Source of the DNA: a virus
Strand: one strand, 5' to 3'
DNA length: 24,006 nt
UHGV virus genome: UHGV-1462358
The notes beneath the pieces are model-generated. The model searched no databases, was not told where the DNA came from, and worked only from the letters and a program-made list of their open reading frames with translations. Positions 14,809 through 24,006 of the stretch are shown in pieces. Position 1 is the stretch's first letter. Each line of letters starts with the position of its first letter. Both the position numbers and the translations under genes were made by a program.

Positions 14809-15383
14809 TGACCCGCATTGAGCTTGGCGGCGTGCTCGGGAAATCATTCGGTAAAATTCACCACCGCCTGATTTCCCGTGTAAGCGAGGCGGGAGTGGCG
14901 CTCGCAAAGACTATTCCGGGCTTTGAGCAGTTTATGATTTCCAGCCAGCGCCGTGGGCTCACATACTCCGTATTTAAGGGTAAAAAAAACATCGGTGTGG
15001 ATGACCTCGGTTTCCCGGTTACCGGCGATGTTATCCGCATTGTCCCGGTAATCATCGGGAGTAAAAAAGCCGGTTTGATTCAAACTATCCTGGGCGCAGT
15101 ATTAGTGATTGCATCGATCTGGATGCCAGGTCTGAGTATAGCTGCCAGCAATATGATGTTTGCTGCTGGTGCGTCCATAACGCTGGGGGGGGTAGTTCAG
15201 ATGATATCCCCTCAGGCTACAGGGCTGGCCAGCAAACAGAGCTCAGATAACCGCGCCTCATACGCGTTCGGCGGAGTCACAAATACCGCCGCACAGGGTT
15301 ACCCGGTTCCGCTCCTGTACGGCCGCCGGAGAATCGGCGGGGCAATTATTTCTGCCGGAATTTATGTCGAAGATCAGCAGTAG
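14796..15383 (+). CDS. I: Tail assembly protein (lambda gpI homolog)
   Basis: 195 aa. Hydrophobic Gly/Ala-rich central segment and C-terminal PLLYGRRRIGG motif resembling lambda gpI (PVLYGEMRVG). Overlaps the K 3' end. Confidence 0.85.
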   Translation: MQEVMTRIELGGVLGKSFGKIHHRLISRVSEAGVALAKTIPGFEQFMISSQRRGLTYSVFKGKKNIGVDDLGFPVTGDVIRIVPVIIGSKKAGLIQTILGAVLVIASIWMPGLSIAASNMMFAAGASITLGGVVQMISPQATGLASKQSSDNRASYAFGGVTNTAAQGYPVPLLYGRRRIGGAIISAGIYVEDQQ

Positions 15384-15400
15384 TTAACAAACCTTTTTAC

Positions 15401-15436: not shown

Positions 15437-18400
15437 ATGGCTAAAACAATTACCGGACGAAAAGGCGGGAGCTCCAGTTCCCGAACTCCCACCGAACAGC
15501 CTGATGATCTGCAATCTGTAGCGAAGGCAAAGATCCTCGTTGCGCTTGGGGAAGGGGAGTTTGCTGGACAGCTCACCGGGAAGGATATCTACCTGGACGG
15601 AACGGCGCTGGAGAACGCCGACGGCTCCCAAAACTTCAGCGGCGTTACGTGGGAATTTCGTCCGGGGACTCAGGCACAAAAATATATTCAGGGTATCCCC
15701 GGCACCGAAAATGAAATCAGCGTGGGCACCGAAGTGTCAAGCACCACCGGCTGGACACATACCTTTACCAACACGCAACTGTCAGCCGTTCGCCTGCGCC
15801 TCAAGTGGCCATCGCTTTTTAAACAGGAGGATGATGGCGATCTGGTTGGCTATTCAATTAACTACGCTATTGATCTGCAGACCGATGGCGGCACCTGGCA
15901 GACGGTACTTAATACCAGCGTAACCGGCAAGACAACTTCCGGCTACGAACGCAGCCATCGCATTGACCTACCGCAGGCAGGCAGCACATGGACGGTGCGC
16001 CTGCGTAAGCTAACGGCGGATGCCAACAGCGCGAAAATTGGTGACACGATGACGCTGCAGAGCTATACAGAGGTCATTGACGCCAAACTGCGTTATCCAA
16101 ATACCGCGCTGCTGTACATCGAATTCGACTCAAGCCAGTTTAACGGCTCTATCCCGCAAATATCCTGCGAACCGCGAGGGCGTGTAATCCGCGTTCCGGA
16201 TACGTATGACCCGGAGACCCGCACCTATAGCGGCACATGGACGGGGGCGTTTAAGTGGGCGTGGACGGATAATCCAGCCTGGATTTTTTACGATCTGGTG
16301 GTGAGCGACCGCTTTGGGCTGGGCAATCGCCTGACGGCGGCCAATATTGATAAATGGACGCTTTACCAGGTCGCGCAATATTGCGATCAGCCGGTTCCTG
16401 ATGGTAAAGGCGGTAGCGGCACTGAGCCTCGCTATACCTGCAACGTGTATGTGCAGGAGAGGAATGACGCCTATACCGTGTTACGAGATTTTGCGGCGAT
16501 ATTCCGGGGCATGACTTACTGGGGTGGCGATCAAATCGTTGCGCTGGCGGATATGCCCCGCGATGTGGATTACAGCTACACGCGTGCAAACGTGGTTAAT
16601 GGGCGCTTTACCTATTCGGGCAGCACCACGAAAACCCGCTATACCACAGCACTGGTTTCCTGGTCCGATCCGGGTAATGCCTACGCGGATGCGATGGAGC
16701 CTGTATTTGAGCAGGATCTCGTTGCTCGCTTTGGCACAAATCAGCTCGAAATGACAGCCATTGGTTGTACCAGACAGTCAGAAGCGAACCGAAAGGGGCG
16801 CTGGGGTATTCTCACCAACAACAAGGATCGCGTTGTTTCGTTCGATGTCGGGCTGGACGGAAACATACCGCAGCCTGGCTATATCATCGCTGTGGCAGAC
16901 GAGCTGCTTTCCGGAAAGGTTATGGGCGGACGCATCAGCGCCGTTAATGGTCGCGTTATCAAACTTGACCGTGTAGCTGATGCGGCAGCAGGTGATCGCC
17001 TTATCCTCAACCTTCCCTCCGGAGCGTCACAGAGCAGGACAATTCAGGCGGTTAACGGGGAATCGGTCACAGTCACCACCGCATACAGTGAGACGCCGCA
17101 GGCCGAAGCTGTCTGGGTGGTTGAGTCAAACGAACTGTACGCACAGCAGTACCGTGTTGTGAGCGTCACTGATAACGATGATGGCACTTTCACCATTACC
17201 GGTGCATGGCACGATCCGGATAAATATGCCCGAATCGATACCGGAGCCATTATTGACCAGCGGCCGGTGAGCGTGATCCCGCCGGGCAATCAGTCACCGC
17301 CAGACAACATCGTAATCAGTTCGTTTTCGGTGGTGCAGCAGAATATCAGCGTCGAAACCATGCGCGTGAGCTGGGACCAGGCGCAGAATGCTATCGCCTA
17401 TGAAGCGCAATGGCGCCGCAACGACGGGAACTGGGTTAACGTGCCGCGCAGTTCCACCACGTCATTCGACGTTCCTGGGATTTATGCCGGGCGCTATCTG
17501 GTACGTGTACGCGCCATCAATGCCGCAGAAATTTCATCCGGGTGGGGATATTCGGAAGAGAAAACGCTGACGGGTAAAGTGGGCAATCCGCCGAAACCGG
17601 TCGGCTTCATCGCTTCCGATAATGTGGTATTCGGTATCGAGCTGAGCTGGGGATTCCCGGCGAACACCGACGACACGCTGAAGACGGAAATTCAGTACAG
17701 TCTGACTGGGACGGAAGACGATGCGATGCTGCTGGCAGACGTACCCTATCCGCAGCGCAAGTATCAGCAGATGGGCCTAAAGGCTGGGCAAATTTTCTGG
17801 TACCGCGCGCAGCTGGTGGACCGCAGCGGAAACGAATCAGGGTATACAGACTTTGTGCGCGGGCAGGCCAGCATCGATGTATCCGATATCACCGATGCAA
17901 TCCTGGAGGATATGAAAGAGTCGGAAACGTTCAAAGACCTGATCGAGAACGCGGTAGACAGCAATGAAAAAATTGCTGGTATGGCTGACGACATTAAACA
18001 GGCCAACGACGAACTGGCGCAACAGGCGCAGGATATCGCCAAAAACGCCCAGGATATCGGGAAGGTTCAGACCAGCGTTACAAACCTGTCGAGCACGGTC
18101 GGAGATGTGTCTTCTTCTCTGAGCAAGCTTGAGCAGACAGTGGCGACGGCTGATACCGCGCTGGGCCAGCGCATCGATAACATCAGCGTGTCTGTGGACG
18201 GTATGACGGGAGGAGTGAAGAACTCTGCCATCGCGATTATTCAGGGCAACCTGGCGCAGGTGGCGGCGCGCAAAACGCTGTCTGCATCCGTCGCCGGTAA
18301 CAGCGCGCAGCTGGACCGCATTGATGAGGTGATCGTCAACGAGAAAGAGGCAACGGCGCGTTCGCTGCTGAGTTTGCAGACTAACGTGAACGGCAACAAG

Positions 18401-18982
18401 GCATCTATCAACAGCCTGAACCAGACGTTCTCCGATTACCAGCAGGCCACGGCCACGCAGATAAACGGGATCACAGCGACCGTCAACGGACACACATCAG
18501 CCATTACCACTAACGCTCAGGCCATAGCGAACGTTAACGGTGATCTGAAGGCGATGTACAGCATCAAGGTTGGTGTCTCCAGCAATGGTCAGTATTACGC
18601 CGCAGGGATGGGGATCGGCGTGGAGAATACGCCGTCCGGCATGCAGTCACAGGTCATCTTCCTGGCTGACCGCTTCGCCGTCACCACGGCAGCAGGTAAC
18701 AGCGTGGCTTTGCCGTTTGTGATCCAGAACGGGCAGACATTCATCCGGGCCAGTTTCATCCAGGACGGCACTATCAGCAACGCAAAGATTGGTAATTTTA
18801 TCCAGTCGAACAATTATGTTGCTGGTTCTGCTGGCTGGAAGCTTGATAAAGGGGGGACGTTTGAGAACTACGGTTCGACTGCTGGTGAGGGAGCCATGAA
18901 ACTGACAAATCAGACGATCAGCGTCAAAGATGGCAGTAATGTTCTTAGGGTGCAGGTTGGCCGATTAACGGGAGTATTCTGA
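15437..18982 (+). CDS. J: Central tail fibre / host specificity protein (lambda gpJ homolog)
   Basis: 1181 aa versus 1132 for lambda J. Conserved blocks (TEVIDAKLRYPNTALLYIEFDS, YSGTWTGAFKWAWTDNPAWIFYDL, YQVAQYCDQPVPDGKGGSGTEPRYTCNVY) match lambda J as recalled. The C-terminal ~150 aa differ from lambda. Confidence 0.95.
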   Translation: MAKTITGRKGGSSSSRTPTEQPDDLQSVAKAKILVALGEGEFAGQLTGKDIYLDGTALENADGSQNFSGVTWEFRPGTQAQKYIQGIPGTENEISVGTEVSSTTGWTHTFTNTQLSAVRLRLKWPSLFKQEDDGDLVGYSINYAIDLQTDGGTWQTVLNTSVTGKTTSGYERSHRIDLPQAGSTWTVRLRKLTADANSAKIGDTMTLQSYTEVIDAKLRYPNTALLYIEFDSSQFNGSIPQISCEPRGRVIRVPDTYDPETRTYSGTWTGAFKWAWTDNPAWIFYDLVVSDRFGLGNRLTAANIDKWTLYQVAQYCDQPVPDGKGGSGTEPRYTCNVYVQERNDAYTVLRDFAAIFRGMTYWGGDQIVALADMPRDVDYSYTRANVVNGRFTYSGSTTKTRYTTALVSWSDPGNAYADAMEPVFEQDLVARFGTNQLEMTAIGCTRQSEANRKGRWGILTNNKDRVVSFDVGLDGNIPQPGYIIAVADELLSGKVMGGRISAVNGRVIKLDRVADAAAGDRLILNLPSGASQSRTIQAVNGESVTVTTAYSETPQAEAVWVVESNELYAQQYRVVSVTDNDDGTFTITGAWHDPDKYARIDTGAIIDQRPVSVIPPGNQSPPDNIVISSFSVVQQNISVETMRVSWDQAQNAIAYEAQWRRNDGNWVNVPRSSTTSFDVPGIYAGRYLVRVRAINAAEISSGWGYSEEKTLTGKVGNPPKPVGFIASDNVVFGIELSWGFPANTDDTLKTEIQYSLTGTEDDAMLLADVPYPQRKYQQMGLKAGQIFWYRAQLVDRSGNESGYTDFVRGQASIDVSDITDAILEDMKESETFKDLIENAVDSNEKIAGMADDIKQANDELAQQAQDIAKNAQDIGKVQTSVTNLSSTVGDVSSSLSKLEQTVATADTALGQRIDNISVSVDGMTGGVKNSAIAIIQGNLAQVAARKTLSASVAGNSAQLDRIDEVIVNEKEATARSLLSLQTNVNGNKASINSLNQTFSDYQQATATQINGITATVNGHTSAITTNAQAIANVNGDLKAMYSIKVGVSSNGQYYAAGMGIGVENTPSGMQSQVIFLADRFAVTTAAGNSVALPFVIQNGQTFIRASFIQDGTISNAKIGNFIQSNNYVAGSAGWKLDKGGTFENYGSTAGEGAMKLTNQTISVKDGSNVLRVQVGRLTGVF

Positions 18983-18983
18983 A

Positions 18984-19286
18984 ATGGCTTATGGAATACA
19001 GACCTGGGATGCTTCAGGAAAACCCAACAACTATGGCATCAAACCCGTTTCCGTCGTTGGGCGAATACAGCTGGCTGCCGGGCAAACCTCCGGCAGCTGG
19101 TCTTTTACGGTGCCCTCAGGAATGAAAGTTGGTTTTGTTCTTTCACTTGATGAAGGAGGTAACAGCGTAGGGCGGCGCATTGTCGCGTCAGGGAGCACAA
19201 TAACCGTAAGCGCTGCATCTTCTGTAGGTCTGGGTAATTATCCGGCCTCAAAGTGTGAAGTGGTCGTTTTCATGGAGAAAGCATAA
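18984..19286 (+). CDS. Hypothetical protein, translationally coupled to J (function unknown)
   Basis: 100-aa ORF with ATG 1 nt after the J stop and GGGAG 9 nt upstream. Shares a G-x3-W-D-A-x-G-K motif with the next ORF. Confidence 0.6.
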   Translation: MAYGIQTWDASGKPNNYGIKPVSVVGRIQLAAGQTSGSWSFTVPSGMKVGFVLSLDEGGNSVGRRIVASGSTITVSAASSVGLGNYPASKCEVVVFMEKA

Positions 19287-19960
19287 TGGCCGAATTTGGC
19301 GCGATGATATTAATGGACAACGGGAACCCATTTGTAACGCCCCAGTCAACGCCTTTTTGTCTTTACGGCAAGTACACTTTCAACTCCTCTGCTAATGGCA
19401 GTTCGCAGCAGGTTGCTCAGAATATTGCATTAAATGCTGACTACCCTGTGATGGTATTTATCAGGACCACAAATACCGCCCAGCCCACGCCAGTAATATC
19501 TTACCGGAACGGAGGAAATGTATATGTCGCGGGGGTTAATCCCTATAACAAGAGCTTCACGTTAACCGCATATATATTTGCCATATTTCCCCAGACGTTA
19601 CCGAAATGGGGGATGGCCATCTGGGATGCGGCAGGAAAGCTGGTGCTCACTAATGAGTCCCGGGTGTTGTCCGACCTACAGACAATTGGAACGCCTGGCG
19701 CAAACGGAGGGATAAATATCGATCAGACACTTAGCGGGCCATGGGCTGTTGCACCTGCACAGCTTGGCCAAAGCATCGTTGTGAATAACTCAACCCAGCC
19801 TCCGACAATCTACACCATTAATGCTTATTCGGCGTGCAGGTTTGACGGGGCCAATACGAGGATAAACGCAGGGGGGACCTCCACTGGCACAGGCTCTCCG
19901 GTAGGGGTAACGAATACTGGAATTTCCTTAACCGCGATAAATACAGCGGCCTATGACTGA
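19286..19960 (+). CDS. Hypothetical protein containing two tandem copies of the domain found in the preceding ORF
   Basis: 224 aa. Start overlaps the previous stop (TAATG). Motif copies at the N-terminus (GAMILMDNGNP) and mid-protein (GMAIWDAAGK) match YGIQTWDASGKP of the upstream ORF. Confidence 0.6.
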   Translation: MAEFGAMILMDNGNPFVTPQSTPFCLYGKYTFNSSANGSSQQVAQNIALNADYPVMVFIRTTNTAQPTPVISYRNGGNVYVAGVNPYNKSFTLTAYIFAIFPQTLPKWGMAIWDAAGKLVLTNESRVLSDLQTIGTPGANGGINIDQTLSGPWAVAPAQLGQSIVVNNSTQPPTIYTINAYSACRFDGANTRINAGGTSTGTGSPVGVTNTGISLTAINTAAYD

Positions 19961-20000
19961 TTGATCGTTTTGGGCGATCAATAACTGATAATTGATCTAT
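19961..20000 (+). promoter_or_regulatory. Inverted-repeat, GATC-rich putative operator/promoter region upstream of the lipoprotein moron
   Basis: TTGATCG-N7-CGATCAA (19961-19981) and an AT-rich ATAATTGAT-N7-ATCAATTAT repeat just downstream. Three GATC sites lie within about 35 bp. Confidence 0.3.
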
Positions 20001-20071
20001 CAAATCAATTATACCCACCTCTTTCATGTTGGTATTGTCTAAGTTCATGAATACCTCTGGATATCATCAAA

Positions 20072-20305
20072 ATGATTAAGCTTCTTATCGGTATGGCTTG
20101 CGCTGCCATGCTTTCAGGTTGCGCTGGTGTACTTGAGAAACAGGAACCGATTTGCAGCGGCACGGCATATATGGGTGGCCATGAGAATACCGTTATGATT
20201 TACGCCGTTCGAAAGCAAAACAACCAGACGCAATACCGGGCCGGATATCCCTTTAACTGGCGCTGGGTAAGTGCGAACACATTCACAAGCACGACATGTA
20301 AATAA
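20072..20305 (+). CDS. Small outer-membrane lipoprotein moron; putative Cor/Llp-like superinfection-exclusion protein
   Basis: 77 aa. Signal peptide MIKLLIGMACAAMLSGC with lipobox L-S-G-C. Located 3' of the receptor-binding genes and flanked by its own terminator. The Cor/Llp assignment rests on size, lipobox and position only. Confidence 0.6.
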   Translation: MIKLLIGMACAAMLSGCAGVLEKQEPICSGTAYMGGHENTVMIYAVRKQNNQTQYRAGYPFNWRWVSANTFTSTTCK

Positions 20306-20325
20306 CTCATGACTTTCAATGCAAA

Positions 20326-20347
20326 CCTCGCCTCGGCGGGGTTTTTT
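20326..20347 (+). terminator. Intrinsic terminator after the lipoprotein gene
   Basis: GC-rich hairpin (CCTCGCC/GGCGGGG arms) followed by TTTTTT at 20342-20347, 21 nt after the stop at 20305. Confidence 0.6.
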
Positions 20348-20363
20348 ATTGCCTGGAGAAAAT

Positions 20364-21473
20364 ATGCTTTATAACACAGGAACTATCTCTATTAACGGAA
20401 ATACCGCAACCGGATCCGGTACAAACTGGACTGCACCGGCCAGCCAGGTTCGCGCTGGCCAGACGATTATTGTCATGTCTAACCCGGTTCAGATGTTCCA
20501 GATTTCATCCGTGAATAGCGCCACGTCAATGACGGTAACGCCTGCTGCATCACCGGCGCTGAGCGGCCAGAAGTACGGCATTCTGGTATCAGACAATATC
20601 TCGGTTGATGGGCTGGCGCTGGCCATGTCGCAGCTTATCAAGGAGTATGACGAGAATATTGGTGCGTGGGAGACGTTCGCCACAACCTCAGCCAACCAGA
20701 ACATTACCGTTACGATCAATGGCACCAGTTTATCAATCCCGGCTCTTGGGAAATTACTGCAGAAGGGGAGCAACGGAGCTTTGCCGGTTAATCAAGGTGG
20801 TACCGGCGCAACGAATGCCGCAGACGCTCGCACAAACCTTGGTTTAGGAAGTAGTGCGACAAAGGATGTCGGAACTGCGGCAGGGAATGTTATGCAGGTG
20901 GGAGCTTTTGGGGTTGGTGCTGCTCTCCAAAATAAGCCCACAGATGCCAGTTCATCCTTCATCAGTGATGCTGCTGGCAATACTCTGTGGGCTCCTGCGA
21001 ATGGCTGTGGGTTTCAGAGTTCCTACACCGAGCAGCGAATTGCGCAGCTGTGGATTACTTACGGTGGTGCGATATTCAGCCGTTTTCTAACAACCACTGA
21101 TGACCCTCAAACACCAAAATCATCAGTGCCGTGGGCGCAGCTGCAGTCTGCAGGTACATCGGACATAAATTTCAAGAAGGTTACTGGAGAACTTAATTTA
21201 GAAGTGTCTCTGGCCAACATCGTGGCAATGGATTTTAAGACCTTCTACTACCTTGCTGATGAAGAGAAAACGATACGCCGAGGTGTTGTTGCTCAGGAAC
21301 TGGAAAAGATAGATCCGCAATATGTTCACTCGGCTGAGGAGTCGGGGAAAATGACCCTAGACCTCAATCCTCTGGTGCTCGATGCGCTGGCGGCAATCAA
21401 AGAGCTGGCAATCCGCGTCAGCGCATTAGAGGGCGACGCTAAATCTCCGGCTTCTGGCTCATCCGCTGGTTAA
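20364..21473 (+). CDS. Side tail fibre protein: constant N-terminal part (to ~20840) fused to the variable part currently in the expressed orientation; C-terminal intramolecular chaperone-like (peptidase S74-type) domain
   Basis: ATG at 20364 with GGAGA RBS; the track's 20319 start runs through the terminator hairpin. GGTGATNAADARTNLGLGSSAT hinge motif is typical of phage tail fibres. C-terminal ...FKTFYYLADEE..GVVAQELEKIDPQYV...LVLDALAAIKELAIRVSALE fits the self-cleaving chaperone domain pattern. Confidence 0.75.
   Translation: MLYNTGTISINGNTATGSGTNWTAPASQVRAGQTIIVMSNPVQMFQISSVNSATSMTVTPAASPALSGQKYGILVSDNISVDGLALAMSQLIKEYDENIGAWETFATTSANQNITVTINGTSLSIPALGKLLQKGSNGALPVNQGGTGATNAADARTNLGLGSSATKDVGTAAGNVMQVGAFGVGAALQNKPTDASSSFISDAAGNTLWAPANGCGFQSSYTEQRIAQLWITYGGAIFSRFLTTTDDPQTPKSSVPWAQLQSAGTSDINFKKVTGELNLEVSLANIVAMDFKTFYYLADEEKTIRRGVVAQELEKIDPQYVHSAEESGKMTLDLNPLVLDALAAIKELAIRVSALEGDAKSPASGSSAG
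20827..20852. repeat. Left recombination site (gix/hix-like 26-bp site) of the invertible segment
   Basis: CTCGCACAAACC-TT-GGTTTAGGAAGT: dyad-symmetric AAACC-NN-GGTTT centre, as in hix/gix sites as recalled. Inner half matches the inner half of the right site at 10 of 12 positions. Confidence 0.6.
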
Positions 21474-22228
21474 ACAGTGAATCTGCGGGCATATCCAAGC
21501 GAACATCGATCCAGCTGTTCGCCGGTACGTCCATCGGTTCACCTTTGGTTTTGATGATTTCACCTTCATCGCTCAGGATGTATTTGCGTTTATACAGACG
21601 GATAGTCAGCCCACCGCTATCGGTTTGCTCTGCCTCAACTACACCCAGTTCCCCCATGCCGCCAGGGTCCATTGGGGGAAGTAACTGCCATCCCTCAGAC
21701 GCCAGGCCTGCCGAACCTGTGAGAACATAAACGCCGACATCAAGCCGTGAAATAGTAATGCCCTCAGCCTCGGCATTCGCCGCACCGCAGCCGCACCAGG
21801 TAAAACCATCCTCCGCTATATCAGCACGCTGGCACTCATCCTTGCTCGTTACAATTCGTGCCACGGGGGAGGCAGCTTTGATAGTGCCGTCACTGGCTTT
21901 TGTCGTATTAGCTGTATGGTAAAATTCATACCATTTACCTGCTGTTCCGCCTATAACCTGGCTAAACATTTTTCTCCCGACAGGCCCACTTAGCCAGCAC
22001 TCAAAGGTGCCGTAATTTGGGCTTCGGTTCATCCAGACACCGTAGCCCGCATCATTAGTTGGCAGGCCGTTGCCGGAACCAGAGGCAATGTTATAAAAGC
22101 CATTTAATCTCGCGTTTTCGTAACGGTTTTGTTCGGCAGGGGCAACAACACCCAAGCCCAAATCCCCTACAGAAAGTATATCGCCAGATGAGCTGTACGC
22201 GTTCCTTGTAGCGCTGCTTCCCAAACCA
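20840..22228. mobile_element. About 1.4 kb invertible DNA segment (Mu G / P1 C / e14 P-type) carrying two convergent alternative tail-fibre C-terminal coding regions
   Basis: Bounded by inverted gix-like sites with identical TT core dinucleotides in inverted orientation. Both cores fall at codon positions 2-3 in the respective reading frames. A Gin/Pin-family invertase gene lies immediately adjacent. Confidence 0.6.
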
Positions 22229-22229
22229 A
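21439..22229 (-). CDS. Alternative tail-fibre C-terminal segment (currently in non-expressed orientation; no start codon of its own within the segment)
   Basis: Minus-strand ORF encoding ...NVGLGSSATRNAYSS..., sharing the (N)xGLGSSAT junction motif with the + strand fibre. It overlaps the + fibre 3' end convergently by 35 bp. The track's GTG start at 22272 lies outside the segment and is probably fortuitous. Confidence 0.6.
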
Positions 22230-22241
22230 CGTTTAATAGAT
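22216..22241. repeat. Right recombination site (gix/hix-like) of the invertible segment
   Basis: GCTTCCCAAACC-AA-CGTTTAATAGAT on the + strand. Its reverse complement ATCTATTAAACG-TT-GGTTTGGGAAGC aligns with the left site. Confidence 0.55.
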
Positions 22242-22305
22242 TGCCACGGGCCGGCCTGGCCGATAACTTCACCTGATTTTTTTGCAGAATTTATTGGGTG
22301 AAAAA

Positions 22306-22861
22306 TATGCAAATTGGCTATGTCAGAGTGTCAACAAATGACCAAAATACAGATCTCCAGCGCCAATCTCTCGAACGCGCAGGATGTGAACAGGTTTTTG
22401 AAGAAAAAATGAGCGGGACGGTAGCGAACCGGCCAGCGCTCAAAAAGCTTCTGCGGACTCTGAATGCGGGCGATACACTGGTGGTGTGGAAACTAGATCG
22501 CCTCGGGCGAAGCATGCGAAATTTAGTGCTGCTGGTGGACGAACTCCGACAGCGGGGCATTCACTTTAAGAGCCTCACGGACAGCATTGATACATCAAGT
22601 CCAATGGGGCGTTTTATATTTCACATCATGTCAGCGCTGGCGGAAATGGAAAGAGAGTTAATCGTCGAACGCACCCGGGCTGGATTAGCGGCGGCGCGGG
22701 AAAAAGGGCGAATAGGTGGCAGACGTCCAAAATTAACTCCCGAGCAATGGGCACAGGCTGGGAGATTAATATTAAACGGCGTGGATAGAAAACAAGTGGC
22801 AATAATTTATGATGTCGCTGTATGCACGCTTTATAAAAAATTTCCGGTGGGACAGGCTTAA
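22306..22861 (+). CDS. Serine recombinase, DNA invertase (Gin/Hin/Pin/Cin family)
   Basis: MQIGYVRVSTNDQNTDLQR... with catalytic Ser in the VRVSTNDQ motif. TLVVWKLDRLGRS, SLTDSIDTSSPMGRF and the C-terminal HTH (KQVAIIYDVAVCTLYKKFP) are near-identical to Gin/Hin as recalled. ATG at 22306 preferred over the track's GTG at 22298. Confidence 0.9.
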
Positions 22862-22903
22862 ATGATTGAAGGGCAGCTGCTAGATGGGCTGCCCGTCAAA
22901 GTA

Positions 22904-23167
22904 TTATCCATTCTGCCGTACAGTTGGAAATTCAGACGTCAGCCACATGTCAGATTCATCAAACATTTCCTCCAGCATACGGTTCAGCTTTTCCCGATCA
23001 CTTTTGCTGGCATCACTATTTAAGCCGTTCGCCTGCATCGGCTTTACCTTCACTTCGGCATCAGGAAAAATCTGGTGCACCCGCTTCGTTAGTTCAGCCA
23101 GGATGATCTCTCTGGCCCCTTGGAGCCCCTCAACATTTCGCTTGTCATAAACCAGTTCAACAAACAT
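22904..23167 (-). CDS. DinI-family protein (SOS-inducible, RecA-modulating)
   Basis: Internal ATG at 23167 with GAGAGGA RBS gives an 88-aa product. The C-terminal LEEMFDESDMWL resembles the DinI C-terminus (...WESADDWF). A LexA box lies 57 nt upstream. The track's 160-aa version starts beyond the promoter and is rejected. Confidence 0.7.
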   Translation of the reverse strand: MFVELVYDKRNVEGLQGAREIILAELTKRVHQIFPDAEVKVKPMQANGLNSDASKSDREKLNRMLEEMFDESDMWLTSEFPTVRQNG

Positions 23168-23223
23168 ACGGATCCTCTCATAAGTGAAAATTGCCTGTGC
23201 TTGATCTGTTTTCATAAAAATAC

Positions 23224-23243
23224 TACTGTATATACATACAGTC
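23224..23243. promoter_or_regulatory. LexA operator (SOS box) in the divergent promoter region
   Basis: TACTGTATATACATACAGTC matches the CTGT-N8-ACAG consensus (TACTGTATATATATACAGTA) at 18 of 20 positions. A candidate -35 TTGACT overlaps it on the minus strand. Confidence 0.8.
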
Positions 23244-23266
23244 AATAAGCAAGTGAGGGTGCGTTC

Positions 23267-23506
23267 ATGCCTCGTCAACCGGATATTCGTGCTGCTTTTA
23301 TTGCGGCCATACAGCAAAACCCGAAGGGCTATCTCTGCCTGCATACAGACAGATTCATCGCTGAACTGCAGGAGAGGCACTGGCATTTCAGCCAGGCAGA
23401 TGCAAATTCATGGATCGAACGATACCAGCCAGACTTCGCCGATAAGACGACAAACGGAAGTGAGAACCGATACTGGATCCTGCGTAACATGGGGAGGGTT
23501 TTCTAA
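23267..23506 (+). CDS. Hypothetical protein (79 aa), first gene of LexA-box-proximal operon
   Basis: ATG at 23267 with GAGGG 7 nt upstream. Stop overlaps the next start (TAATG). No family recognised. Confidence 0.5.
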   Translation: MPRQPDIRAAFIAAIQQNPKGYLCLHTDRFIAELQERHWHFSQADANSWIERYQPDFADKTTNGSENRYWILRNMGRVF

Positions 23507-23826
23507 TGGGGTTTCCATCGCCAGCCATGGATTACCAGGAGCAGCGCATGACAATAGATGTTATCTGCGGTGTAGATAACAACTGCCGGGTTATTGAAAC
23601 TTCATGCGGCTGGGCCGTTATAAACGTCAGTCTTAAGCCAGAAGGAGGGGATACGTTGCTGGTTAGCATGGACGGGAGAAACCAGTTCGTGAAGCTAATG
23701 GGCCACGCGCTGATCACTCAAGATGGTGAAGCGATAGAAGGGGAAGCTTTGAATGACGTAACGGTACACGGCGTTCTTACACATACACTTAACCAAGTTA
23801 AAGACGATAAATCGCCTGTAATGTAG
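23506..23826 (+). CDS. Hypothetical protein (106 aa), second gene of the operon
   Basis: Translationally coupled to the upstream ORF. Followed by a terminator at 23892-23920. No family recognised; alternative internal starts are possible. Confidence 0.45.
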   Translation: MGFPSPAMDYQEQRMTIDVICGVDNNCRVIETSCGWAVINVSLKPEGGDTLLVSMDGRNQFVKLMGHALITQDGEAIEGEALNDVTVHGVLTHTLNQVKDDKSPVM

Positions 23827-23891
23827 CGTGTAAATGTCGGGAGTTATTCCCCCATTTTTCCCCAATGATTCCCCGTACAAATTTCAAACAT

Positions 23892-23920
23892 AAAAAAACC
23901 AGCCGTAAGAGGCTGGTTTT
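23892..23920. terminator. Bidirectional intrinsic terminator between the two-gene operon and the tRNA
   Basis: CCAGCC-GTAAGA-GGCTGG hairpin (23899-23916) flanked by A7 on the 5' side and T4 on the 3' side. It reads as a terminator on both strands. Confidence 0.7.
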
Positions 23921-23931
23921 CAATGTGTTTT

Positions 23932-24006
23932 TGGTCGGCACGAGAGGATTTGAACCTCCGACCCCCGACACCCCATGACGGTGCGCTACCAGGCTGCGCT
24001 ACGTGC
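23932..24006 (-). tRNA. tRNA-Pro (anticodon GGG), 5'-truncated by the window edge
   Basis: Reverse complement reads GCACGTAGCGCAGCCTGGTAGCGCACCGTCATGGGGTGTCGGGGGTCGGAGGTTCAAATCCTCTCGTGCCGACCA. It has D-arm, anticodon loop AUGGGGU (GGG), T-arm GGTTCAAATCC and 3' CCA, and matches E. coli proL as recalled apart from 2 missing 5' nt. Confidence 0.85.

Follow-up and report, generated by a model that had tools for sequence, protein, structure and literature searches.

The open reading frame at positions 20072-20305 of the 24,006-nucleotide stretch of viral DNA analysed here (the window) is, with a probability of about 90%, the gene of the phage exclusion lipoprotein Cor, identity and FhuA-directed exclusion being taken jointly. 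The gene, its position and its function are already known: they are textbook matter for phages of the phi80/N15/HK022 type, and the protein is named automatically by the NCBI pipeline. The preliminary description had proposed the frame as a candidate Cor/Llp-type superinfection exclusion lipoprotein; this can now be narrowed to Cor itself, given the NCBIfam (NF047972) and PHROG (1119) assignments, the 79-90% identity to the phi80 and HK022 proteins, and the occupation of the same genomic slot. The window corresponds to the late arm of a lambdoid prophage (head and tail), with the terminase genes at its left end, and the features that bear on cor are the following.

15437-18982, + strand: J, the central tail fibre/host specificity protein, 1181 aa, 95% identical to HK022 J; the receptor it binds is the one that Cor would be expected to block.
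18984-19286, + strand: J-linked gene, 100 aa, homologue of N15 gp22 (phrog_557, E = 2.4e-36).
19286-19960, + strand: J-linked gene, 224 aa, homologue of N15 gp23 (phrog_425, E = 8.8e-81).
19960-19982: inverted repeat 1, ATTGATCG-N7-CGATCAAT, with a GATC in each arm, its first base being the third of the gp23-like stop codon.
19988-20012: inverted repeat 2, ATAATTGAT-N7-ATCAATTAT, with a third GATC and 9-nt arms that are 100% complementary.
20030-20038, + strand: candidate extended -10 element for cor, TGgTATTGT, proposed from a weight-matrix scan and from conservation.
20072-20122, + strand: lipoprotein signal peptide (residues 1-16) and lipobox LSGC, with Cys17 encoded at 20120-20122, by sequence reading.
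20072-20305, + strand, stop codon included: cor, encoding the phage exclusion lipoprotein Cor of 77 aa with its signal peptide (NF047972, phrog_1119, identity to the HK022 and phi80 proteins, NCBI name).
20323-20350, + strand: intrinsic terminator, a stem-loop at 20323-20344 with 9 pairs (5 of them G-C) and a 4-nt loop, then a T-run, TTTTTTAT.
20364-21473, + strand: side tail fibre (tail-fibre PHROGs with E down to 1e-80; Peptidase_S74 at aa 266-321).
22298-22861: serine invertase of the Pin/Gin/Hin type.

As for the family assignment, the frame scores 135 bits against the equivalog NF047972 (lamb_exclu_cor; cutoff 31 bits, E = 6.4e-40), its residues 1-76 aligning with profile positions 1-76 of 78, and residues 1-77 match PHROG 1119, "Cor superinfection exclusion protein", with E = 2.6e-34. 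The amino acid identity is 90% to HK022 Cor, 79% to phi80 Cor and 61% to N15 Cor; homology to Cor had been named as a check in the preliminary description, and these values supply it. The Pfam search found no Cor model and gave only a sub-threshold match, mainly to the signal peptide (DUF4223, E = 0.064), while the PADLOC anti-phage defence models matched neither cor nor the two genes upstream of it. Relatives of the protein were found in 230 phage records, the majority of them annotated as Cor or superinfection exclusion; they are spread over HK/mEp lambdoid phages, N15, SSU5, Aeromonas and Erwinia phages and T1-like virulent phages, and IMG/VR holds 443 further ones. At the DNA level, the 387-bp region that holds cor has 100% identity with the unannotated lambdoid contig KM389287.1, and some 30 HK/mEp phages match it with about 90% identity. 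The identical protein is listed in NCBI as "phage exclusion lipoprotein Cor [Escherichia coli]", on 159 contigs, and in E. coli UPEC85 it is annotated cor (WP_016240125.1).

Seven Cor proteins from phages of four host genera (E. coli, Aeromonas, Erwinia and Salmonella) were aligned, and the residues C28, C76, Y55, A57, G58, F61, W63, W65 and V66 of the mature domain are invariant among them; all are found in the window protein, which thus carries both the cysteine pair and the YRAGYPFNWRWV block that are conserved features of Cor. By each sequence and context criterion tested, the protein is a member of the Cor family. A weak match of SSU5 Cor (E = 2.9e-4) at 15276-15398 spans the stop codon of a tail assembly gene and was treated as chance.

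Regarding the signal, the protein begins MIKLLIGMACAAMLSGCAGV; the N-terminus of the frame reads MIKLLIGMACAAMLSGC followed by AGV, and the signal itself reads MIKLLIGMACAAMLSG followed by C. K3 places a positive charge in the n-region, ahead of a hydrophobic core, and the lipobox L14-S15-G16-C17 (20111-20122) fits the [LVI][ASTVI][GAS]C consensus on direct reading; Cys17 is invariant in the seven aligned proteins from four host genera. By this consensus reading it is a type II (lipoprotein) signal peptide, and the earlier claim of a 77-aa frame with an LSGC lipobox and Cys17 is borne out by the sequence. Residue +2 of the mature protein is Ala, therefore the Asp that acts as inner-membrane retention signal is absent.

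The genomic position of cor also agrees with the preliminary description, which had set it between the J-linked genes (18984-19286 and 19286-19960, on the left) and the side fibre (20364-21473, on the right). The gene order is J, gp22-like, gp23-like, cor, terminator, side fibre and then the invertase; the part from J to the fibre is the same in phi80, N15, HK022 and HK140, and phi80 too has a Pin-type invertase downstream of cor. In lambda, cor is missing and lom stands between J and stf. HK022, mEp235/mEp234/mEpX1 and the HK-series phages share with the window the terminator, the start of the downstream fibre, J and the gp22/gp23 neighbours. phi80 and N15 carry the founding members of the family, which confer lysogenic conversion to T1/phi80 resistance through FhuA, and have family and gene order in common with the window, with N15 differing in being a linear plasmid prophage. 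Cor-like genes of T1-like phages (Drexlerviridae) and of other virulent coliphages belong to the same family and are annotated as superinfection exclusion, but they are far more divergent, with only 29-46% full-length identity, and differ from the window cor in genomic context and in phage life style.

The two J-linked genes (18984-19960) bear the PHROG labels "outer membrane protein" and "membrane associated protein", and they constantly accompany this type of J and cor. Against Pfam and NCBIfam they matched no family, with only a sub-threshold hit to Tailspike_C (E = 0.015); a tail-tip role of these gp22/gp23-like genes seems to be undescribed.

The preliminary description had further called the gene a self-contained moron ending in an intrinsic terminator, and this is borne out in part. 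For the terminator the evidence is unambiguous: the 20323-20344 stem-loop folds with -16.1 kcal/mol (z = -3.4 versus shuffles), a terminator is annotated at the equivalent place in phi80 and HK140, and in Aeromonas and Erwinia phages a G+C-rich hairpin of different sequence, also with a T-run, follows cor. Of the features expected of a moron, both the own terminator and a patchy occurrence at the position (lambda has no cor there) were found. The promoter, instead, is a conserved sequence candidate. A stricter two-hexamer scan found no canonical sigma-70 promoter, and the weight-matrix scan pointed instead to the extended -10 element TGgTATTGT, which clearly outscored every other site upstream of cor and ranks within the first 16 of about 120,000 + strand positions. 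The 80 cor loci taken from IMG/VR comprise 38 distinct upstream variants; every one of these carries TGnTAnnnT, 40-42 nt ahead of the ATG, and the motif varies at non-critical positions only. It is present as well in phi80, HK022, HK140, the strongly diverged N15 and the Aeromonas phage pAEv1818. The upstream region of N15 has diverged to the point of keeping only TGnTATTGT and one GATC. On this conservation, TGgTATTGT at 20030-20038 is the probable promoter of cor.

As for the receptor, the J protein of the window has 95% identity with HK022 J (1179 aa aligned) and 58% with phi80 J as a whole, and its last ~150 aa are identical, bar two substitutions, to those of both phages; the C-terminal 250 aa have 47% identity with the C-terminus of N15 gp21. 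The preliminary description had noted that J, ending in ...LRVQVGRLTGVF, is unlike lambda J in its C-terminus and that the receptor was probably not LamB. Comparison of the last 250 aa of the two proteins agrees with the former point, no significant similarity being found (E = 0.6), and the latter can be sharpened: FhuA is the stated receptor of T1, T5, phi80, N15 and HK022 (PMC9311878), and because the J C-terminus is that of phi80 and HK022, which use FhuA, we infer that the phage receptor is FhuA and not LamB. By these likenesses, the prophage would belong with the lambdoid phages of the HK022/phi80 type, which carry cor and depend on FhuA; according to Hernandez-Sanchez 2008, as cited in PMC11893012, faecal collections of lambdoid phages are dominated by phages that are cor-positive and FhuA-dependent.

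The activity of Cor is described for the closest relatives. In the account that PMC3594210 gives of Uc-Mass 2004, lysogens of HK022, N15 and phi80 are protected by Cor against FhuA-dependent phages through inactivation of the receptor, and Cor of the same phages lowers ferrichrome uptake and protects from colicin M; the FhuA-dependent exclusion phenotype (T1/phi80/T5 and colicin M resistance) is known for Cor of HK022, N15, phi80 and mEp167 (PMC3594210; PMC9311878). The near-identity of the mature domain to that of HK022 Cor argues for the same FhuA-dependent exclusion by the window protein.

How Cor works at the molecular level "has not yet been elucidated" (bioRxiv 10.64898/2026.03.26.714494), and the mechanism outlined here draws on the homologues, on established lipoprotein biology and on the T5 lipoprotein Llp. 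In the lysogen, transcription would most likely start at the weak extended -10 element, about 42 nt upstream of the ATG, and stop at the terminator; Cor would in that case be produced at a time when the late tail genes on either side are off. After export, the precursor would receive its lipid on Cys17 and be cut by signal peptidase II, as in other lipoproteins and as its homologues suggest. The mature domain of about 60 residues, presumably a small beta-barrel with a probable Cys28-Cys76 disulphide, would then inactivate FhuA, a TonB-dependent transporter, and FhuA-dependent phages (the window phage, phi80, HK022, N15, T1 and T5) would be barred from the lysogen at the cost of less ferrichrome uptake. 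By analogy with Llp, Cor may bind the periplasmic face of FhuA and allosterically close the extracellular loops that form the phage-binding site. Overall, we infer the sorting and the FhuA-binding steps, and that the latter is Llp-like is rated somewhat more probable than otherwise.

Llp is a lytic conversion lipoprotein whose structure has been determined with FhuA (PDB 8A60) and alone (7QJF); in the complex, it binds from the periplasmic side and the extracellular loops fold inward allosterically (PMC9586334). Cor has been proposed to act like Llp, and an intramolecular disulphide is common to both (PMC9586334; bioRxiv 10.64898/2026.03.26.714494). A single-sequence AlphaFold model of the window Cor, made without an alignment, has five strands and a pLDDT above 90 for residues 28-77, and of all PDB representatives the one that it matches best in structure is Llp in complex with FhuA. 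The Foldseek search discriminated less well: in it, Llp ranked only 44th-48th, with E of about 0.3-0.4, behind Tudor/SH3-like barrels, and nevertheless had the best target-normalised TM-score, 0.61. The model has the small beta-barrel lipoprotein domain that is the fold of Llp. Regarding the sequence, neither phmmer with the window protein nor hmmsearch with a profile of seven Cor sequences matched Llp among all PDB chains (8A60_B and 7QJF included) up to E = 10, and these searches linked Cor by sequence to no solved structure at all. At the sequence level Cor is therefore outside the Llp family, and the likeness is at the level of the fold.

Three other explanations of the gene were weighed against the reading as a FhuA-directed, lysogen-expressed Cor. 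That the frame encodes a small lipoprotein with another role (lambda has such morons, for serum resistance or virulence, in Bor and Lom) and merely resembles Cor, is extremely improbable: the virulence-associated lom of lambda at the equivalent post-J position and the sub-threshold matches to DUF4223 and to TraV (E = 7e-4, below its cutoff) speak for it, but these matches span mainly the signal peptide (residues 2-29 and 2-57), whereas the equivalog match is full-length and 100 bits over the cutoff, and the mature part scarcely differs from HK022 Cor. Another reading is that cor is a silent passenger that is transcribed only with the late tail operon in lytic growth, shielding infected cells and progeny as T5 Llp does and not the lysogen. 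The scan without a canonical sigma-70 promoter, the position of cor directly downstream of late genes on the same strand and its presence in lytic T1-like phages too are in keeping with such a passenger; it is nonetheless very unlikely, as the extended -10 is kept at a fixed distance across divergent upstream sequences, the cor intergenic region is AT-rich (37.5% G+C), and a dedicated terminator separates cor from the fibre gene. In addition, protection of HK022, N15 and phi80 lysogens has been reported (PMC3594210), and the HK022 record annotates cor as "moron gene product".

The main rival concerns the mechanism and derives from Arguijo-Hernandez 2018, in the form summarised in PMC9311878: Cor would need, or act via, other outer-membrane proteins (OmpA, OmpC, OmpF or others), for instance in a complex that masks FhuA or disturbs its surroundings. 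The statement that the mechanism is not elucidated (bioRxiv 10.64898/2026.03.26.714494) leaves room for it, as does the lack of any Cor-Llp sequence similarity in the searches described above. It is nevertheless considered unlikely, since the top PDB structural match of the Cor model is Llp in its complex with FhuA, Cor and Llp have the cysteine pair in common (PMC9586334), and ferrichrome uptake and colicin M sensitivity are lost with Cor (PMC3594210) as they are with Llp (PMC9586334). Direct, Llp-like inactivation of FhuA by Cor is hence the preferred reading.

If the prophage is of the FhuA-dependent, cor-positive type, its lysogens are predicted to resist T1, T5, phi80 and related phages as well as colicin M, with ferrichrome uptake somewhat impaired. 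This matters little beyond correct annotation, being relevant to host-range prediction in phage therapy and to laboratory phage contamination. What the analysis adds to the known gene is the fold search, which on a predicted model places Cor closest to T5 Llp in its FhuA complex, along with the conserved extended -10 element and the conserved GATC repeat upstream, for which no published explanation was found.

As for this upstream region, described earlier as rich in inverted repeats and GATC, the two repeats (19960-19982 and 19988-20012) and three GATC sites are indeed there. Inverted repeat 2 overlaps the expected -35/UP position of the candidate promoter and has one arm mismatch in phi80 and one in HK022. 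The GATC sites, at 19963, 19976 and 19994, fall within 35 bp, and this is the sole 45-bp stretch of the 24-kb window with at least three of them. About 0.27 such clusters per window are expected by chance, making the enrichment a modest, roughly four-fold one; furthermore, one repeat contributes two of the three sites, one per arm, so that these are not independent, and HK022-type phages do not have two of the three. The idea that the cluster is a statistical anomaly was accordingly rejected.

Inverted repeat 1 is kept in 33 of the 38 upstream variants from the 80 IMG/VR loci, and in two of the variants the arms are 10 bp long; between these two, a change in one arm is matched by the complementary change in the other (GTT/AAC versus GCT/AGC). 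In the cor loci of Erwinia phages there is a GATC-bearing repeat, TTCGATCG-N3-CGATCGAA, with variable loops, and in an Aeromonas phage GATCGTT-GCA-AACGATC precedes cor; arm sequence and loop thus vary among the E. coli, Erwinia and Aeromonas phage lineages. No GATC repeat is present in a second class of cor paralogues, which lie in another genomic context. In HK022 and the HK022-type phages, the left arm of repeat 1 was lost via a 4-bp deletion, yet HK022 Cor is reported to be functional, which argues that repeat 1 is not essential for expression.

Regarding the role of the repeat, FhuA is Fur-regulated, and as the upstream repeat resembles GATAAT-type boxes, regulation of cor by Fur was an attractive idea; it was rejected, given that upstream of cor no site agrees with the 19-bp Fur consensus at more than 12 of 19 positions, a score that other parts of the window reach as well. 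A significant RNA structure was rejected as well, folding of 19945-20075 giving z = -0.75. The GATC repeat might be an undescribed regulatory element, either a switch sensitive to Dam methylation/SeqA or an operator for a host regulator, a proposal that is speculative and rather doubtful; if true, it would tie Cor production to the replication state or to envelope/iron conditions. Another possibility is an RNA hairpin by which the late gp23 message is terminated or stabilised.

By sequence comparison, the window cor is a mosaic, or recombinant, allele. The upstream region (19961-20071) is 97% identical in DNA to phi80 and 78% to HK022, whereas the mature-domain codons (20120-20305) are only 80% identical to phi80 and 99.5% to HK022, and the 3' UTR with the terminator (20306-20347) is 76% and 98% identical, respectively. 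The signal-peptide codons (20072-20119) are near to neither, with 75% identity to phi80 and 69% to HK022, which suggests that the mosaic junction is inside the signal-peptide region; the residues of this peptide are unlike those of both phages, the lipobox being nonetheless intact. Compared with HK022, then, the window protein is 90% identical, with a different signal peptide and a phi80-type upstream region, and its mature part is HK022 Cor with one substitution, E25K.

The chromosome of E. coli UPEC85 carries the identical cor allele (100% over 387 bp) in a different prophage, beside yciI-tonB, where the fibre gene downstream of cor differs from that of the window; the cor cassette therefore moves between prophages. 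Three IMG/VR contigs (3300014524_000019, 3300013644_000001 and 2571042784_000003) have two cor-family genes about 11-12 kb apart, the second of which is ~69% identical to the window Cor and has a different upstream context. This hints that such phages perhaps exclude via two receptors or two Cor specificities. A second cor paralogue was searched for in the window and none was found, so the window has one cor only.

Finally, the region to the right of cor holds further observations. On the opposite strand, a 277-aa frame with a Phage_tail_C_2 domain (22272-21439) converges with the side fibre gene, and the motif N(L/V)GLGSSAT is common to both fibre frames; an inverted pair, AAACCTTGGTTTAGGAAG / AAACGTTGGTTTGGGAAG, near 20835-20852 and 22217-22234 resembles recombination sites. 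Together with the invertase, 20364-22861 appears to be an invertible tail-fibre switch, in which inversion of about 1.4 kb would exchange the C-terminus of the fibre. At this position phi80 has the invertase and otherwise only pseudogene remnants. At the right end, a tRNA-Pro(GGG) on the minus strand (23932-24006) runs past the end of the window and probably marks the prophage-chromosome junction. Small frames lie between the invertase and the tRNA (22862-23930); one of them (22904-23386, minus strand) looks DinI-like by eye in its C-terminal half. A "DinI family protein" is annotated in E. coli sequences that match this part of the window, and the corresponding position in phi80 is occupied by dinL.
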